From positions 17,934 through 81,933 of the forward strand of contig CAYQCC010000001.1 in assembly GCA_964415895.1 (NCBI GenBank): 64,000 bases of DNA. The letters run 5' to 3'. The notes beneath the pieces are model-generated. The model was not told the DNA's origin. It saw only the letters and a program-made list of their open reading frames with translations, and made no database searches. Made by a program: the position numbers and the translations under genes. This DNA comes from an uncultured Candidatus Saccharibacteria bacterium. GTDB lineage: Bacteria; Patescibacteriota; Minisyncoccia; Phycocordibacterales; UBA1006. Of the stretch, positions 8,473-59,500 are shown in pieces; the first letter of the stretch is position 1; each line of letters opens with the position of its first letter.

Positions 8473-8499
8473 AAAAACTTCTCGGACAGAGAGGTTTTT
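8473..8499 (+). terminator. bidirectional rho-independent terminator
   Basis: AAAAA-CUUCUC-GGACA-GAGAGG-UUUUU. Confidence 0.55.
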
Positions 8500-8626
8500 C
8501 ATTTATTACATAACATTGACATGTTATCATTTTAAAGATATTGTGTAGGAAATATAAAACCTCTTTGTCAATAAACTAATAAAATCAAAAATAATTAAAT
8601 AACCAAAAAGAAAAACAAAACTACTA

Positions 8627-20727: not shown

Positions 20728-20750
20728 AAACACCATTTGGTGTTTTTATT
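20727..20750. terminator. bidirectional terminator AAAACACCA-UU-UGGUGUUUU between convergent genes
   Basis: Perfect palindrome flanked by A-run and T-run. Confidence 0.65.
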
Positions 20751-21291
20751 TTTGAAATATTTTTAACAACTCAGTCTCTGTTTCCGCGTCCAGATTATTC
20801 GTTGTCATGATCATCATTTCTGTCGTCAGGTCCAGATCTTTCTTGATATTCATAAACAGGTGTTCGTAGGGAAATGGGGAAATCCATGCTGAATTTTTGA
20901 GTAATTCAAACCCGGCTTTTTTCAAGAGATATCGCAATGCCTCGCGTTCGGATTTTCGGGATTCTGGTAGATCAAGCAATACGATCCGCCACTGTCCGTC
21001 CCAGTTGGGAACCAGGGTAGAATCCGATTCCAATTGGATACTGACTGCCTTTCGTTTACCAGCCCGGGTCAGCCGTGCATAGTCGTTCTGGCCTGAAAAA
21101 TGGCTCTCTACAAGGCCTGATTCATGCAAACCGCGCAATGACCGATTCAGGGCATATTGTGCCTTTTTTGGGTCATTTTCAGCCTTTTCAGAGACGTCCT
21201 TTATAAGTTTGCCTGCAAGATCAGGAAAGGAAACCGCACGATTCTCAGACAGTATTTTCAATATTTTCTTGGAGTAATCTTGATTTTTCAT
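20746..21291 (-). CDS. putative transcriptional regulator, PaaX-like (winged-helix N-terminus; C-terminal WDGQWRIVLLDLPE region)
   Basis: The DGxW..V..DlPE.....R...R..L...GF motif resembles the PaaX C-terminal domain. The N-terminus is winged-helix-like. The assignment is tentative. Confidence 0.35.
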   Translation of the reverse strand: MKNQDYSKKILKILSENRAVSFPDLAGKLIKDVSEKAENDPKKAQYALNRSLRGLHESGLVESHFSGQNDYARLTRAGKRKAVSIQLESDSTLVPNWDGQWRIVLLDLPESRKSEREALRYLLKKAGFELLKNSAWISPFPYEHLFMNIKKDLDLTTEMMIMTTNNLDAETETELLKIFQK

Positions 21292-21314
21292 AAATAGTAT
21301 TTACCTCACCCTAG

Positions 21315-21383
21315 CCCTCTCCTACATAGGAGAGGGAATAAGCCACAAAACGCGAGTCAGTCCTTCTCCTATGTAGGAGAAGG
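21315..21383. repeat. inverted pair of 22-bp dyad-symmetric elements (CCCTCTCCTACATAGGAGAGGG ... CCTTCTCCTATGTAGGAGAAGG) in a divergent promoter region
   Basis: Each 22-mer is a perfect palindrome. The second is the reverse complement of the first with 2 substitutions. They are separated by 25 nt. The same family recurs at 28325-28440. Confidence 0.6.
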
Positions 21384-21406
21384 TGGCGGCACGCCGGATG
21401 ATGTAC

Positions 21407-21434: not shown

Positions 21435-21485
21435 AGACATTGTACAAGTATTTCGCGACCGCGGAATAATTGTTAATATTTAATT

Positions 21486-25960: not shown

Positions 25961-27346
25961 TTATACTTTTCTAACCTTTTGTCCGTCATCTGTATCTTTT
26001 AATTCGTATCCAAGTGCCTGGATTTCGTTTCGAATTAAATCTGATGTATGCCAGTCTTGTTTTTCACGAGCAATTTCTCGTTCCTTCAACAGTTTTTGAA
26101 TGTGATCTGGAATCTCAAATGGCTCGTCATCTGCCGCAACTTCATTAAGTTTTAATCCAAGTACGCGATCAAAATCAAGGATGGTTGCTTTTTTATCAGC
26201 ATCAGAAACGTCAGGATTCTTTATAAGTTCCCAAACAATCGCAAGTCCACCAGCAGTGTTCAAATCATCATTCACAATATCATTAAATAATGTTTGGTAG
26301 GATTCTGAAATTTCTCCAACTTCTTCTATTCGTGAGATATAACTTTGCAGTTTTTTCAAAGCTGTTTCTGATGCAGACAATGCTTCCCATGAAAACGAGA
26401 TTTGTGATCGATAATGTGATTGTAGATATAAATAACGTAACGCAAGAGGGTTGTGTCCGTTTTCACGCACTGTTTCCATAGTGATAGAATTATCGCCAGA
26501 CTTCGCCATCTTGGTATCACCAATGTTTACGAATTCATTATGCAACCAATAATTCACATAAGGTGCATGCCCTGTAGAGCATTCTGATTGCGCAATTTCA
26601 TTATTATGATGAATTGCTGCAAGATCATGCCCACCTGTATGAATATCTAGATGGTCTCCCAAGTATTTCATTCCCATTCCAGAACACTCGATATGCCAGC
26701 CAGGGAAGCCTTGACCCCATGGTGACTGCCAGCCTTTTGTCTCATCGAATTTCCACAATGCAAAGTCACGCGCACTTTTTTTCTCTGTAACTTCGCCAAT
26801 ACGTGATTCGTTAGAACTTGAAAGTCCTCCCAGTTTTCCATAATCCGGCATTTTTTCTGTATCAAAATATATACCATCTGTAGTTGTATATATAAAACCT
26901 TTCTGCTCAAGTTTTTTAATGATTTCAATATCTTCATCAACATGCTCACTTGCTCGTGGAAGGATCTTTGGAGTTAAAATATTCATTTCTCCAATATCAT
27001 TTACGAATACGTCTTCATATTTGCGAGCAAGTTTCAACATGTTTTCAAGATTAATCTCCATTCCTTCACGTTTCAGCCCCTTTGTCATTTTGTCATCTCC
27101 AGTATCATTATCTTCATTCACAAGATGTCCAATATCCGTAATGTTCATTACCTGGTTTACTTGGTAATCGTTATATTCAAAAACACGACGTACAATATCG
27201 GCTAATGCGAATGCTCGTAAGTTGCCAATATGAAGTGACCCATATACCGTAGGTCCACAATGATACATAGAAACAGAGCCAGGTGTAATTGGCTTAAATA
27301 TTTCTTTCTGCTTTGAAAGCGTATTAGTTAGGTAAATTTGTTTCAT
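25961..27346 (-). CDS. cysS: cysteinyl-tRNA synthetase
   Basis: HCGPTVYGSLHIGN (HIGH), KMAKSGDN (KMSKS) and the overall class I CysRS pattern. Confidence 0.9.
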   Translation of the reverse strand: MKQIYLTNTLSKQKEIFKPITPGSVSMYHCGPTVYGSLHIGNLRAFALADIVRRVFEYNDYQVNQVMNITDIGHLVNEDNDTGDDKMTKGLKREGMEINLENMLKLARKYEDVFVNDIGEMNILTPKILPRASEHVDEDIEIIKKLEQKGFIYTTTDGIYFDTEKMPDYGKLGGLSSSNESRIGEVTEKKSARDFALWKFDETKGWQSPWGQGFPGWHIECSGMGMKYLGDHLDIHTGGHDLAAIHHNNEIAQSECSTGHAPYVNYWLHNEFVNIGDTKMAKSGDNSITMETVRENGHNPLALRYLYLQSHYRSQISFSWEALSASETALKKLQSYISRIEEVGEISESYQTLFNDIVNDDLNTAGGLAIVWELIKNPDVSDADKKATILDFDRVLGLKLNEVAADDEPFEIPDHIQKLLKEREIAREKQDWHTSDLIRNEIQALGYELKDTDDGQKVRKV

Positions 27347-27366: not shown

Positions 27367-28269
27367 TTACAGCCACTTCTTCTTGTTGAAATACATCATC
27401 ATAATCAAAAGAATAACAACCAGTATTCCTATTACGATCCAAAATCCGTTTTCTCCGTGGAAGATATGTGGCGATGCAGGATCGAATAATATAATTGCAA
27501 TTAATGAAAGAGGGAATGTAACGAACGACATTAATGTAAGTGTTCGCATAATTTCGTTAGTTCTATTTGTAAGTAATGAATCGTATGTCTGACGTAATTC
27601 CTGCGTCATTTCGCGAGAACTATCCATAATGGTTGTCAGGTGATAATACCGATGCATAATTGACTGTACAACAGATTCAAATTCATCACCAAACAATGCA
27701 ATTGCTTCATGTTCAAACGATGTAAGGATTTCATGATGAAACCGCAGTGCTGACTTACAATCAAGTAATTTTCTGTGAAGAGTAATTAATATTTTAGAGA
27801 TTGAAGAATCGTTTTCACCAAAGATTCTATTTTCTACATCAGTAATATCCTTTTTAATAAGTGACAATTCATCAATAAGACCATCATACAGATCGTCGAT
27901 CATTAGTCCAAAAATATTTCCACCATGGATATCTGCCATGGGTGACTTGTTGCTTGCAGTGTGTTTTTTCTCGAACGATAACAACGTATCTATTGGCAAA
28001 TATCTATTAGTAATAATGAACTTTTTATGTACTATAAAATCGATTTCAATAGCGCCTCCAGTTTTATGTGCTGGGTGATCGGGAAAATGAAGAACAAAAA
28101 ACAGATAATCATCGTACCGGACTGCTTTTGCTCGCAAAGATGGACGCAATAATTCGATCGCACATGACTCATTAATATCAAATTCGTTAATAATAGTATG
28201 GATTTCCTCGGTGGTTGGGTTTTCCAAATCAATCCATGGAATGCCGTATAAATCATTGCGGTTTATCAT
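27367..28269 (-). CDS. CorA-like divalent cation transporter (divergent; GMN motif absent)
   Basis: Soluble N-terminal domain plus 2 C-terminal transmembrane helices ending KKKWL. ...FPLSLIAIILFDPASP occupies the position of the YGMNF motif. Apparently co-transcribed with cysS (20-nt gap). Confidence 0.5.
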   Translation of the reverse strand: MINRNDLYGIPWIDLENPTTEEIHTIINEFDINESCAIELLRPSLRAKAVRYDDYLFFVLHFPDHPAHKTGGAIEIDFIVHKKFIITNRYLPIDTLLSFEKKHTASNKSPMADIHGGNIFGLMIDDLYDGLIDELSLIKKDITDVENRIFGENDSSISKILITLHRKLLDCKSALRFHHEILTSFEHEAIALFGDEFESVVQSIMHRYYHLTTIMDSSREMTQELRQTYDSLLTNRTNEIMRTLTLMSFVTFPLSLIAIILFDPASPHIFHGENGFWIVIGILVVILLIMMMYFNKKKWL

Positions 28270-28324
28270 ATGGACAAAAGTATAGCATTTTAGGGACAGT
28301 TTTGGTAGCTTTTTTGTATTTCAT

Positions 28325-28440
28325 CCCCTCCTAAATTAGGAGAGGTGACCGAAGGTCGGGGTGGTATTTTGAGTGCATTACTTATCCATAAATCTTCTTG
28401 ATCCTCGTGCCTCAGGTCAGTCTCCTAATTTATGAGGGGG
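28325..28440. repeat. second inverted pair of CCCCTCCTAAATTAGGAGAGG-type dyad elements, flanking a 72-nt spacer, in the corA/cysS-rplU divergent promoter region
   Basis: 28325-28345 and 28420-28440 are near reverse complements of each other. Each contains the CTCCTAA-TTAGGAG dyad. This is the same family as at 21315-21383. Confidence 0.55.
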
Positions 28441-28453
28441 TTCAATGCTTTGC

Positions 28454-28481
28454 TTGCATTTCTTTTGAAATTATGTATACT
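28454..28481 (+). promoter_or_regulatory. promoter TTGCAT-16-TATACT for rplU
   Basis: Hexamers read from the sequence. ATG at 28492. Confidence 0.45.
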
Positions 28482-28491
28482 GGTACGCATT

Positions 28492-28899
28492 ATGGCATCA
28501 ACAACTACGTCAAAAAAAGCACCTGCAAAAAAGGCTGCTACAAAAAAAGTGAGCACTAAAAAGGCGGTAAATTCTGAGAATTCAGCATTTGCGGTTATTG
28601 CAACTGGTGGAAAACAATACATTGTTCGTGTAGGTGATGTGATCACTATCGAGAAAATGGATGGTGAGTTTGCAGAAGGCCAAGCGACTTCATTTGATCA
28701 AGTATTGCTTACTAACGATGGAACAGCTACAAAAGTAGGCGCTCCAACGGTATCTGGCGCAAAAGTTTCTGCAGAGTTTATCGAAGCAGGACGAGACAAA
28801 AAAGTAATGGTTGTTAAATACAAAGCTAAATCTCGTTACTTAAAGAAAAACGGACACCGACAGCCTCACATGAAATTCAAGATTACTGCAATTGCGTAA
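28492..28899 (+). CDS. rplU: 50S ribosomal protein L21 with Lys/Ala-rich N-terminal extension
   Basis: FAVIATGGKQYIVRVGDVITIEK...KVMVVKYKAKSRYLKKNGHRQPHMKFKITAI. Confidence 0.85.
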   Translation: MASTTTSKKAPAKKAATKKVSTKKAVNSENSAFAVIATGGKQYIVRVGDVITIEKMDGEFAEGQATSFDQVLLTNDGTATKVGAPTVSGAKVSAEFIEAGRDKKVMVVKYKAKSRYLKKNGHRQPHMKFKITAIA

Positions 28900-29867: not shown

Positions 29868-29870
29868 AAT

Positions 29871-29924
29871 AACTGAGTAACAGAAAAACCACATCATTTG
29901 ATGTGGTTTTTCTGTTACTCAGTT
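29871..29924 (+). terminator. very long perfect hairpin (26-bp stem, 2-nt centre) with terminator core AAAAACCACAUCA/UGAUGUGGUUUUU
   Basis: rc(29871-29896) = 29899-29924 exactly. Confidence 0.6.
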
Positions 29925-29943
29925 ATCCACAGATAAATATGAG

Positions 29944-37857: not shown

Positions 37858-38955
37858 ATGAATCAAGAAATAGCTGAAAAATTAAAATCTCTAGAATCCA
37901 AATACAGTTATAATCAGGATGAGGTTTATTATTTCAATTCTCATCGTTCTTCAGACCTTGTTTTGTCATTGCAGAATCGGTTTGAAACATTCGATGAATC
38001 AATTATTCCAGAGATCTTTAAAGATTTTGGAGAAGCGGAAAGCTGGACAGTCAATCAAAGTTTTGGAACAGGTCATATTATTATTTTTGTGAGTACAAAA
38101 GATGGAAAGGAATATGTGTTACGTACAAATTATGGAATTGCTGAACCAGAGAAATATATGCAATTTGAAAAGTATTTCGCGCAACAATATGAATCTGTAG
38201 GCATTCCTACCGCAAAAGTGTTGCATAGTGATATTTCTCGCGAAAAATACCCATTTGATTATCAGATCATGGAAAAACTTGGTGGTTATGATTTGAAAAC
38301 TGATCCAGATATTACAGAGGAGCAATATGAAATGATTTCACAAGATCTTGGAAAGGTAGTGGCAAAGCAGTTTTTATTACCCATAAAAGGGTTTGGTCGG
38401 ATCGTTCTTAGGGATAGTATTTATCAAGGAAATTACAATACACACAATGAGTATCTATCGGCGTATGTCGACCATGACCTTGATGTAATGGAATTATTTG
38501 AAATCATTGATCACGAATCAAATATAATGATATTAAATTTTTTCAAATCTGAAGACATAAAAAATCTCTTTGTAAGTACATCATCATATCTAGTACATCA
38601 CGATTTAGCTGATCATAACATTCGAGTAAAGAATGGAAAGCTATTAGCAATTTATGATTGGGAAAATGTCGTGGCGTTTGATCCACTTTCAGAGCTAGGC
38701 TCAATTCCTACGTGGCTATCGCGCTATCCGAGAGCCCCAGGAATGATAATAGGCTTCTTGGAATCTTATGGTCATATGCCTGAAAACTTCGAATTGAAAC
38801 TGTCAGTCTATAAATTGCGTACTATGTTATGGAAGGCTAATCTAGCTTTAAAAGGTGAAAAGTTGTCACATCGGCATATTGATTACCTACGACAAGCATT
38901 ACAAGAATGTGGCTTGGATATAATAATTAATTCTGATCATTTAACATTGAAATAA
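37858..38955 (+). CDS. protein-kinase-like (APH / choline-kinase family) phosphotransferase
   Basis: Brenner motif HHDLADHN (HxDxxxxN) and IYDWE (D-x-E metal-binding loop). The track ORF begins at TTG 37849; the ATG is at 37858. Confidence 0.55.
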   Translation: MNQEIAEKLKSLESKYSYNQDEVYYFNSHRSSDLVLSLQNRFETFDESIIPEIFKDFGEAESWTVNQSFGTGHIIIFVSTKDGKEYVLRTNYGIAEPEKYMQFEKYFAQQYESVGIPTAKVLHSDISREKYPFDYQIMEKLGGYDLKTDPDITEEQYEMISQDLGKVVAKQFLLPIKGFGRIVLRDSIYQGNYNTHNEYLSAYVDHDLDVMELFEIIDHESNIMILNFFKSEDIKNLFVSTSSYLVHHDLADHNIRVKNGKLLAIYDWENVVAFDPLSELGSIPTWLSRYPRAPGMIIGFLESYGHMPENFELKLSVYKLRTMLWKANLALKGEKLSHRHIDYLRQALQECGLDIIINSDHLTLK

Positions 38956-38956
38956 T

Positions 38957-38984
38957 AAAAATACCTTATTAATAAGGTATTTTT
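38957..38984. terminator. 28-nt perfect palindrome terminator AAAAAUACCUUAUU|AAUAAGGUAUUUUU
   Basis: Perfect dyad flanked by A-run and T-run. Confidence 0.6.
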
Positions 38985-39018
38985 ATTATTTCTCGGAATC
39001 TGTTAAAATGGCTGTATT

Positions 39019-45361: not shown

Positions 45362-45411
45362 CAGTATGATATGAAAAACCTCTCAATCGAGAGGTTTTTC
45401 ATATCATACTG
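45362..45411. terminator. 23-bp perfect-stem hairpin (loop AAUC) acting as a convergent terminator; overlaps the NUDIX stop codon
   Basis: rc(45362-45384) = 45389-45411 exactly. Core AAAAACCUCUC/GAGAGGUUUUU. Confidence 0.6.
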
Positions 45412-57782: not shown

Positions 57783-57930
57783 TTCCAGCGACCCGACTGA
57801 CACTTGGCGAGGAATAAGTTAGAAAGAGTTATAAATGAGGGTGGCACCGCGGAATAATCCGCCCCTCTGAATTTATCAGAAGTTAAGAGTAGTTGCTCAT
57901 AATTTTAAATAAGTTCAGAGGGGTTTTCTT
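57783..57930 (+). promoter_or_regulatory. T-box riboswitch leader (antiterminator/terminator) upstream of aspS
   Basis: Canonical T-box core GAGGGUGGCACCGCGG at 57837-57852. The antiterminator has A1 helix GAGGG/CCCUC, a 7-nt bulge UGGCACC and A2 helix GCGG-AAUAAU-CCGC. The competing terminator is CCCCUCUGAA (57862-71) paired with UUCAGAGGGG (57914-23) plus UUUUCUU. The bulge UGGC can pair with a 3' GCCA acceptor end (G73, as in tRNA-Asp). GACA at 57796-99 is a possible Asp specifier, but Stem I would be unusually short. Confidence 0.65.
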
Positions 57931-58078: not shown

Positions 58079-59500
58079 ATGAAAGATAGAATTTTAATTG
58101 GTGACTTATCAAGTCACAAGGGAAGTGAGGTCACAATCAATGGATGGGTTTCTGTTCGTCGTGATCAAGGGAAAATGGTTTTCTTTGATTTTCGAGATCG
58201 TACCGGATACGTGCAAGGAGTAGTTTTGCCAGGAAGTGCTGCAATCGACATTGCGAAAGAAATCAAAACTGAATATGTTGTTTCTGTTACAGGTAAAGTA
58301 AATGAACGACCAGAACGAAACCGACAGGCTGATAAGCAAAACGGTGATATCGAACTTGAAATTCTTGGAATGGAAATCTTGAACGAGACTGAAACGCTTC
58401 CATTTGAAATCAGTAGTGATACATCGGTAGTAGGTGAGGAAACACGCTTGAAATACCGATACATTGATTTACGCAGCGAGCGTGTTCAGAAAAACATCCG
58501 TATGCGCCACAAGATTCAGAAATTAATTCGTGACTTCTTGGATGGACAAGGATTCATCGAAGTGGAAACTCCAATCCTAACAAAGTCGACTCCAGAAGGA
58601 GCGCGTGATTATATTGTTCCATCACGTCTATATCCAGGAACCGTATATGCGTTGCCACAGTCGCCACAACAATACAAACAGCTGTTGATGACAGCAGGAG
58701 TGGAACGGTACTTTCAATTGGCACGTTGTATGCGCGATGAAGATACACGTGGAGACCGACAACCTGAATTTACGCAGCTAGACATGGAAATGAGTTTTGT
58801 TGATCAGGATGCAGTAATGCAAGTTAACGAGGAATTACTTATTAAAGTTGTGCAGGATTTATATCCAGAAAAGAAAATTCAGCAAATTCCATTTCCACGA
58901 ATTACCTATAAAGATGCGATGGAGAAATATGGAAATGACCGGCCTGATATTCGAAATGACAAAAATGATCCAGACTTGTTAGCGTTTTGTTGGGTAATTG
59001 ATTTCCCATTTTTCGAACCTACTGACAAATCAGACAATCCGGATACACATGGTGCATGGACATTTACTCACAATCCGTTTTCTGCACCAAAACCAGAACA
59101 TATGGAATGGTTAATAGAAAAGAAAAATATTGGTGAAATTTTGACGACACAATACGACATTGCATTGAATGGTTATGAAATTGGTGGAGGATCAATTCGA
59201 AACCATAAACCAGAAGCACTTCGAACAGTGTTTGAAATTATTGGACATAAGTCTGAAGACATTGATACAAACTTTGGCCACATGTTAAAAGCCTTTTCAT
59301 CTGGCACTCCGCCACATGGTGGAATTGCTTGGGGATTTGATCGATTCTTGATGCTGTTGCAAGGTGAGCCAAACATCCGCGAGGTGATCCCGTTCCCAAA
59401 AACAGGGGAGGGACGAGACTTAATGATGAATGCACCAGCTCCAGTTTCAGATCGACAGTTGGAAGAGCTTCATTTGATTGCAAAGAAAAAGAGTATTTAG
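58079..59500 (+). CDS. aspS: aspartyl-tRNA synthetase, short (archaeal/eukaryotic-type, no GAD insertion domain)
   Basis: N-terminal OB anticodon-binding domain and class II motifs (FRDRTG...; QSPQQYKQLLM; GGGSIRNH; GIAWGFDRFLM). Only 473 aa. Confidence 0.85.
   Translation: MKDRILIGDLSSHKGSEVTINGWVSVRRDQGKMVFFDFRDRTGYVQGVVLPGSAAIDIAKEIKTEYVVSVTGKVNERPERNRQADKQNGDIELEILGMEILNETETLPFEISSDTSVVGEETRLKYRYIDLRSERVQKNIRMRHKIQKLIRDFLDGQGFIEVETPILTKSTPEGARDYIVPSRLYPGTVYALPQSPQQYKQLLMTAGVERYFQLARCMRDEDTRGDRQPEFTQLDMEMSFVDQDAVMQVNEELLIKVVQDLYPEKKIQQIPFPRITYKDAMEKYGNDRPDIRNDKNDPDLLAFCWVIDFPFFEPTDKSDNPDTHGAWTFTHNPFSAPKPEHMEWLIEKKNIGEILTTQYDIALNGYEIGGGSIRNHKPEALRTVFEIIGHKSEDIDTNFGHMLKAFSSGTPPHGGIAWGFDRFLMLLQGEPNIREVIPFPKTGEGRDLMMNAPAPVSDRQLEELHLIAKKKSI

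Follow-up and report, generated by a model that had tools for sequence, protein, structure and literature searches.

The 222-nt spacer between corA, a magnesium-transporter gene, and rplU, the gene of ribosomal protein L21, contains a long inverted repeat (locus B), and the question arose of whether this repeat regulates one of the two genes, is a gene in its own right or is DNA that was inserted between two promoters. The locus lies in a 64-kb stretch of DNA, the whole of which was analysed and is called the window here, with a G+C content of 37%. The source genome belongs to the Patescibacteria and is of the Saccharibacteria type, and the nearest CorA homologs in public genomes are labelled Candidatus Saccharibacteria. 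To our knowledge, Patescibacteria have very compact genomes, for which descriptions of mobile or repeated non-coding elements are scarce, and a search of the literature on repeats, MITEs and leaderless promoters of Saccharibacteria and Patescibacteria revealed nothing relevant. A sequence-only reading of the window had assigned locus B to a family of dyad elements, together with a second locus (locus A), and had raised the possibility of an L21 leader.

Locus B is a long quasi-palindrome outside of both flanking mRNAs

Two arms had been described as near reverse complements and, indeed, CCCCTCCTAAATTAGGAGAGG (28325-28345) and GTCTCCTAATTTATGAGGGGG (28420-28440) were found exactly there; the stretch between them (28346-28419) measures 74 nt and not 72 nt as counted before. 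Since each arm, the 5' arm included, is a near-palindrome by itself, the repeat search listed the two both as inverted repeats (26-nt arms with 85% complementarity) and as direct repeats (83%). Pairing extends inward via TGACC/GGTCA and AGGTCGGGG/CCTCGTGCCT and outward to GTAT...ATGC, and the long-range helix that had been predicted was recovered, albeit with about 41 pairs over 28316-28448 instead of about 20 bp; 38 of the 41 modelled pairs are canonical in the window copy. The same coordinates delimit the whole quasi-palindrome of 133 nt, whose plus strand folds better with RNA parameters and is called the sense strand in the following. A covariance model built on locus B scored 142 bits on the plus strand and 48 bits on the minus strand.

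The inner helix is formed on the plus strand by AGGTCGGGG (28353-28361), which is identical in all four sequence variants, and CCTCGTGCCTC (28403-28413), with two G.U pairs and one bulged U between the two sides. On the 3' side, CTCGTGCCTC is the same in all variants, and the helix AGGUCGGGG/CCUCGUGCCU as a whole, including the G.U pairs and the bulged U, is invariant. Non-coding DNA flanking the element is ~77% identical between the window and the variant of L007 (described below), and at a background identity of roughly 77% invariant runs of 9-10 bases are, by our estimate, not unexpected. The apical region (28362-28402) is AT-rich, poorly conserved in its 3' half and contains no stable structure common to the variants. 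The GACC-GAA-GGTC mini-hairpin (28347-28357) and the GGGGTGGTATTTTGAG stretch noted earlier in the enclosed region are both present; the mini-hairpin competes with the long helix and is not retained in the L007 homolog. Folding of 28320-28445 as RNA, a check that had been suggested, gave -52.9 kcal/mol compared to -32.4 ± 3.6 kcal/mol for shuffled sequences (z = -5.7), and none of 200 shuffles was as good. With DNA parameters both strands of the element fold equivalently (-24.2 and -22.9 kcal/mol, z about -5.5). A small ORF in the element (GTG/ATG-ACC-GAA-GGT...) was rejected since its frame shifts from the window to L006 and its start is missing in L007; locus B encodes nothing.

On one side of the element lies corA (27367-28269, minus strand) with cysS (25961-27346, minus) next in line, and on the other side rplU (plus strand, ATG at 28492) is followed by tRNA-Ile. 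The corA -10 box TATACT (28279-28284, minus) is located 9 nt before the ATG at 28269, outside of the element and facing away from it. The rplU promoter consists of TTGCAT (28454-28459), a spacing of 16 nt and TATACT (28476-28481), with the ATG 10 nt on, and is located on the plus strand outside and downstream of the element; the earlier placement of the arms just upstream of these two divergent promoters was thus confirmed from the sequence. Both promoters are kept in every relative examined, whether the element is present or not: the corA -10 box is found in relatives without the element, and the rplU promoter in all of them, even behind another upstream gene. Since each promoter separates the element from its gene and is directed outward, locus B is upstream of both the corA and the rplU transcription start and is part of neither flanking mRNA. 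A consensus scan revealed no promoter-like or terminator-like site inside the element. A function as intrinsic terminator was rejected because no terminator-like site was found across 28150-28600 and the flanking genes diverge from the element.

The -10 boxes of corA, rplU and the PaaX-like regulator gene next to locus A are found 6-10 nt before the ATG and no Shine-Dalgarno sequence is present (window 28267-28284, 28476-28494 and 21289-21300; L142 2470-2503), which implies that these mRNAs would be leaderless or nearly leaderless. For corA and rplU, the -10-to-ATG spacing and the absent Shine-Dalgarno sequence predict nearly leaderless mRNAs.

Searches against Rfam did not assign locus B to a known RNA family. 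At the gathering threshold only three tRNAs were found in the whole window, and a cmscan of 28200-28600 at E <= 10 gave only spurious miRNA and sRNA matches of at most 14 bits. The L21-leader and other ribosomal-protein leader models, which had been proposed for this region, had no match at E <= 10, and the rplU promoter lies downstream of the element.

Distribution of locus B among relatives

The divergent arrangement of corA and rplU is kept over a graded series of relatives, and the element is present in some and absent from others. CorA identities given here are pairwise values, apart from those of L002, L003 and L004, which come from a separate search for homologs; the homology search gave 89, 84 and 80% for the L006, L007 and L011 lineages. 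In the window and in L001 (CorA 100% identical) the spacer of 222 nt contains the 133-nt element with its sense strand toward rplU. The same orientation is found in L006 and L141 (CorA 90%; spacer ~223 nt, element 134-135 nt) and in L086 and L119, which contain a variant similar to that of L006 in a spacer of ~223 nt. L007, L008, L009, L139 and L140 (CorA 85%) have a spacer of 261 nt and an element of 123 nt, which is inverted. The site is empty in L011 (CorA 82%; spacer 109 nt), L002 (72%; 105 nt), L003 and L004 (77% and 63%; 58-76 nt) and L013, L014 and L017 (78-79%; 56 nt). A spacer of no more than 56 nt serves both divergent promoters in several relatives.

No signal for the element was obtained in the empty spacers, neither with the profile (nhmmer) nor with the covariance model, and local alignment of the spacers of L011, L002, L003 and L004 in both orientations revealed no remnants beyond chance. 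An origin of locus B in situ was rejected on this basis. Lack of conservation of the arms in relatives had been named as an argument against the element, and the picture is divided: the arms are kept, with co-variation, in lineages with a CorA identity of at least 85%, and the element is absent from all others. The CorA tree unites the window, L006 and L007 as ((window, L006), L007), and the sister of this clade, L011, lacks the element, which fits a single gain; one gain followed by one inversion would be the simplest history. To judge from this distribution, locus B is a young insertion confined to the closest relatives.

Some assemblies with an identical L21 protein differ in the genes upstream of it (L134, 1380-1520, compared to L136, L139 and L140): corA and the hairpin element are found in some, a Na+/H+ exchanger-TrkA gene in others, and homology breaks directly upstream of the rplU -35 box (TTGCAT). 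The site upstream of rplU is, on this comparison of assemblies, apparently a recurrent rearrangement breakpoint, and locus B may mark a rearrangement hot spot.

The element was inverted in one lineage and its arms changed together

The sense strand of the element runs toward rplU in the window, in L006 and in L086. Reverse complements of the motifs AGGTCGGGG and CTCGTGCCTC in swapped order are found in the L007 group, and there the covariance model scored 59.7 bits on the strand toward corA compared to 30.9 bits on the other strand. Both orientations share the position of the left junction, indicating inversion in place and not a second insertion. Only one orientation was found per lineage in independent assemblies, with two copies of the window type, four of the L006/L086 type and five full copies of the L007 type (11 full copies). 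Beside the inverted copy, L007 contains ~53 extra nt (551-603; in window orientation between the element and TTGCAT) that include a palindrome, GGGCTAGCCC, and a stretch weakly resembling an arm, CCCCTAATTCAAG; either a third arm or the inverting rearrangement may have left this remnant.

In an alignment of the four variants that was fitted to the structure, and hence leans toward it, canonical pairs (Watson-Crick or G.U) make up 37-40 of the 39-41 scorable ones in each variant. In L007, about 10 pair positions carry changes on both sides with pairing retained, and there are matched indels: TGAA is missing from one arm and TTCA from the other, and each arm has gained one base. All of this co-variation falls on one branch, and template-switch correction from arm to arm of a DNA quasi-palindrome would give the same pattern as selection on an RNA. 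Self-palindromy of the single arms did not follow the same course; self-complementarity extends to 12-14 of 15 positions in the window, L006 and L086, but only to about 8 of 15 in L007 by our count.

With RNA parameters, folding of the sense strand is favoured over that of its complement by 6-13 kcal/mol in all variants, the inverted one included (sense/antisense -55.5/-42.6, -64.2/-57.7, -71.9/-60.4 and -54.0/-43.7 kcal/mol), because the sense strand forms more G.U pairs (5-8 compared to 1-3 in the antisense strand). The G+T content of the sense strand is 55-61%.

Copy number and signs of mobility

Locus B is present in a single copy in the window, and no further copies were found in about 90 kb from relatives. 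A metagenome scan with AGGTCGGGG-N36-50-CTCGTGCCTC, which needs an exact 19-nt core and would let diverged copies escape, gave 115 loci; two of them were real (L086 and L119), both at the same orthologous locus, and the remaining ones were unrelated sequences, mostly of high G+C. The only match in a scan of a viral collection was unrelated, and BLAST against plasmid and phage collections returned no similar DNA. Among the ~65 ORFs of the window, Pfam revealed no transposase, integrase, recombinase or HUH-enzyme domains and no Y1_Tnp match. No direct repeat, i.e. no target-site duplication, was found at the ends of the element in the window, L006, L086 or L007. A mobile origin is nevertheless suggested by the clean presence or absence of the element, its terminal inverted arms and a second insertion of the same style, locus A.

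Locus A (21287-21405, minus strand) is located between the gene of a PaaX-like winged-helix regulator (20746-21291, minus) and a P-loop NTPase/kinase-like gene and is a clean insertion of 119 nt relative to L142 (2380-2520); L143 is also without it. It contains two 22-nt palindromes, CCCTCTCCTACATAGGAGAGGG (21315-21336) and CCTTCTCCTATGTAGGAGAAGG (21362-21383), both with a core that matches the locus B arm. The insertion falls within the first codons of the regulator gene, splits the ancestral start (ATGTCAAG/AAAT), brings a new in-frame ATG (21291-21289) and keeps the ancestral promoter TTGTAC-16-TATCCT as well as a divergent TTGAC-type -35 box, so that the PaaX-like gene now has either a hairpin-bearing leader of ~125 nt or else a new promoter. 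The regulator is 89% identical in L142 and 70% in L143. Since these relatives with nearly the same regulator lack the palindromes, the latter cannot be a conserved operator of the PaaX-like protein.

With up to three mismatches, the arm core had 5 matches compared to 1.25 expected, a number reached by none of 100 shuffles, and CTCCTA-N0-8-TAGGAG occurs three times in 64 kb, always within loci A and B, at an estimated chance expectation of ~0.03. Local alignment limits the likeness of the two loci to ~21 nt of the arm; it was matched by none of 500 shuffles for the window copy, had p-values of 0.01-0.02 for L086 and L006 and was absent for L007. Locus A was not detected by the nhmmer profile or the covariance model of locus B. 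Like locus B, it is a lineage-specific insertion in a divergent promoter region. Membership of both loci in one dyad family, as proposed earlier, therefore stands for the ~21-nt arm motif and for the insertion of both, but not for homology by profile or covariance model. As far as these alignments go, the link is real in arm motif and behaviour, and locus A is only possibly the same kind of element. A 13-mer, ACCGCGGAATAAT, shared by the vicinity of locus A and the T-box described below was disregarded, as exact 13-nt repeats are, by our estimate, expected by chance in 64 kb.

The PaaX-like regulator gene lies inside a grpE-dnaK-dnaJ neighbourhood and is conserved far better than the neighbouring genes; the protein keeps 89% identity in a genome with a CorA identity of 66% and has more than 2000 homologs at E <= 1e-15. 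It may be a core regulator of the clade. A palindrome, TTTCGCG-AC-CGCGAAA, is conserved in its divergent promoter region (window ~21453-21470; L142 ~2449-2466).

Other hairpins in the window

A CCCCTC...GAGGGG hairpin (57862-57923) was considered as a third dyad and rejected, since it is the unrelated terminator of a T-box leader. The 3' part of this leader (RF00230; 57814-57866, plus strand) was found with 27.8 bits and E = 1.8e-4, far below the gathering score; it contains the motif GAGGGTGGCACCGCGG, is followed by the long terminator hairpin with TTTT and is located upstream of a class II aminoacyl-tRNA synthetase gene of the D/K/N type (58079-59500). The T-box is probably reduced or divergent, and standard annotation would miss it. 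Four further long palindromes are found at gene 3' ends. Those at 29869-29926, 45362-45411 and 38949-38992 have perfectly matched arms (23-28 nt); at 8485-8569, the arms measure 32 nt and match imperfectly, with 78% complementarity. AAAAACC...GGTTTTT is the form of several of these palindromes, and they look like bidirectional intrinsic terminators, a class distinct from loci A and B.

Comparison with known hairpin elements

Locus B resembles MITE-type elements such as the Correia elements of Neisseria and the enterobacterial ERIC/IRU sequences in its size (~120-135 bp), its terminal inverted arms of at least ~26 bp, its non-coding nature and intergenic location near promoters, its occurrence in either orientation, its presence or absence in close relatives and its fold into one long hairpin. 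As in a MITE, inverted repeats bound a short non-coding unit, and pairs are formed from GTAT...ATGC inward. Unlike Correia and ERIC families, which have tens to hundreds of copies per genome, locus B has one copy and a distant look-alike; multiple dispersed copies were found neither in the window nor in the ~90 kb of relatives or by the metagenome core scan. Correia elements have a TA target duplication but locus B has none, and in the plasmid, phage and metagenome searches it had no sequence similarity to any known element.

REPINs, which are inverted REP doublets mobilised by RAYT, a Y1 HUH transposase, are similar to locus B in having two inverted palindromes with a spacer of ~70 nt; each palindrome can form a hairpin and the whole folds as one long hairpin. 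The strand preference of locus B would fit a single-stranded DNA intermediate, as in REPINs. However, locus B does not have a multi-copy population (the arm motif occurs at two loci only in 64 kb), a GTAG-type 5' motif or a RAYT gene in the window, and its arms in L007 are no longer self-palindromic. The palindrome-associated elements derived from IS200/IS605 (PATEs) have no target duplication either, and locus A is similar to them as an insertion with two similar hairpins 22-28 nt in from the ends; in contrast to PATEs, there is no tnpA or tnpB nearby, no known target tetranucleotide is visible and pairing in locus B reaches the very ends, like in terminal inverted repeats. Invertons are also short intergenic segments between inverted repeats that are known in both orientations, but in the assembled copies of locus B the orientation is fixed by lineage, the window contains no recombinase gene, and the segment has no internal promoter and is only 74 bp long.

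Discussion

In sum, locus B is most likely a regulator of neither flanking gene. We give a probability of about 0.45 to the reading that it is an orphan, lineage-restricted relic of a MITE- or REPIN-like hairpin element that acts at most as a passive spacer or cruciform. An imperfect DNA palindrome of 133 bp would have entered the short corA/rplU promoter spacer once, in the ancestor of three sister lineages, and it would behave as what remains of a small non-autonomous hairpin element (MITE, REPIN or ERIC/Correia type), because it is present or absent in close relatives, its arms reach the ends of the insert, it is found in either orientation and it is non-coding. After insertion, the interior of the element flipped once in one lineage, most simply by recombination or template switching between its own arms, and the arms have since changed together, probably by arm-to-arm correction of the quasi-palindrome. 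The effect on the neighbouring genes is likely passive: the two promoters would have been pushed ~130 bp apart, and the element could extrude as a cruciform under negative supercoiling generated by divergent transcription. Against such a mobile relic stand the single gain as the only sign of mobility, the single copy in the window and ~90 kb of relatives, the missing target-site duplication, the lack of transposase, integrase and HUH domains in the ~65 ORFs of the window and the lack of anything similar in plasmid and phage collections. The preference of the same strand for folding as RNA by 6-13 kcal/mol would fit a strand-specific RNA instead.

The main surviving rival is an independently transcribed, structured small RNA gene of ~125-135 nt with a long hairpin formed from the sense strand (plus strand of the window), and as a free-standing gene it could take either orientation between corA and rplU. 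The sense strand out-folds the antisense strand in every variant, the inner helix is invariant, many pairs are altered on both sides and a single copy is what is expected of a gene. Nevertheless, we regard a small RNA as unlikely: in neither genomic context is a promoter-like site found upstream of or inside the sense strand, nor a terminator after it, and no Rfam family, including SRP RNA, 6S RNA and ribozymes, matched even at E <= 10. As the element is missing from the sister lineage and all other relatives, a core RNA is excluded. The high G+T content of the sense strand can account for the strand asymmetry, and the co-variation falls on one branch and comes from the structure-fitted alignment.

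It is possible, though improbable, that either a low-copy family of Saccharibacteria hairpins exists, with loci A and B as its first two recognised members, or locus B is a new lineage-specific RNA of ~130 nt. Members of such a family would be mobile as single-stranded DNA, like REPINs or derivatives of IS200/IS605, would land in short promoter spacers of compact genomes and could rebuild gene starts, as locus A appears to have done with the start of the conserved PaaX-like regulator.

A role of the arms as double-stranded DNA operators for a dimeric regulator, e.g. the PaaX-like protein, with loci A and B as a small regulon through which the divergent promoters would be controlled, is doubtful to a high degree. 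Each arm of the window copy is a near-palindrome (CTCCTAA-A-TTAGGAG) with a promoter at a distance of 13-40 nt, locus A contains these half-sites twice immediately upstream of the PaaX-like regulator gene, and CTCCTA...TAGGAG is confined to the two loci in 64 kb. However, L007 has lost the self-palindromy of the arms yet keeps arm-to-arm pairing, the half-sites are spaced by 2 nt at locus A compared to 3 nt at locus B, the genomes with regulators 89% and 70% identical (L142 and L143) are both without the locus A palindromes, and most relatives run both promoters without any such site.

Very improbable is a programmed inverton, in which the 74-bp interior would be turned around by a site-specific recombinase so as to alter how corA or rplU is expressed. 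A short promoter-region segment bounded by inverted repeats and the occurrence of both orientations among related genomes would be in line with this, but the orientation is fixed within each lineage over independent assemblies, there is neither a recombinase domain in the 64-kb window nor a promoter-like site within the segment, and corA and rplU keep their own outward-facing promoters. For synapsis by known invertases, an interior of 74 bp would be very short.

Last, a cis-acting mRNA leader, either autoregulatory by L21 for rplU or Mg2+-sensing for corA, is rejected: although the element adjoins both genes and forms a strong hairpin, the -10 boxes are found between it and the start codons, 9-10 nt from the ATGs, neither a ribosomal-protein-leader nor an M-box model of Rfam matched, and L007 has the element in reversed orientation with respect to rplU, and most relatives lack it and keep the same promoters.

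For annotation it follows that locus B, being no leader of rplU or corA, should not be modelled as one. The finding of a probable hairpin-element relic is a modest one, an instance of the turnover of non-coding DNA in a compact patescibacterial genome and, on present evidence, no new kind of system. Gain, inversion and co-evolution of the arms inside a spacer of 56 nt bear on how non-coding DNA enters compact genomes and persists there.
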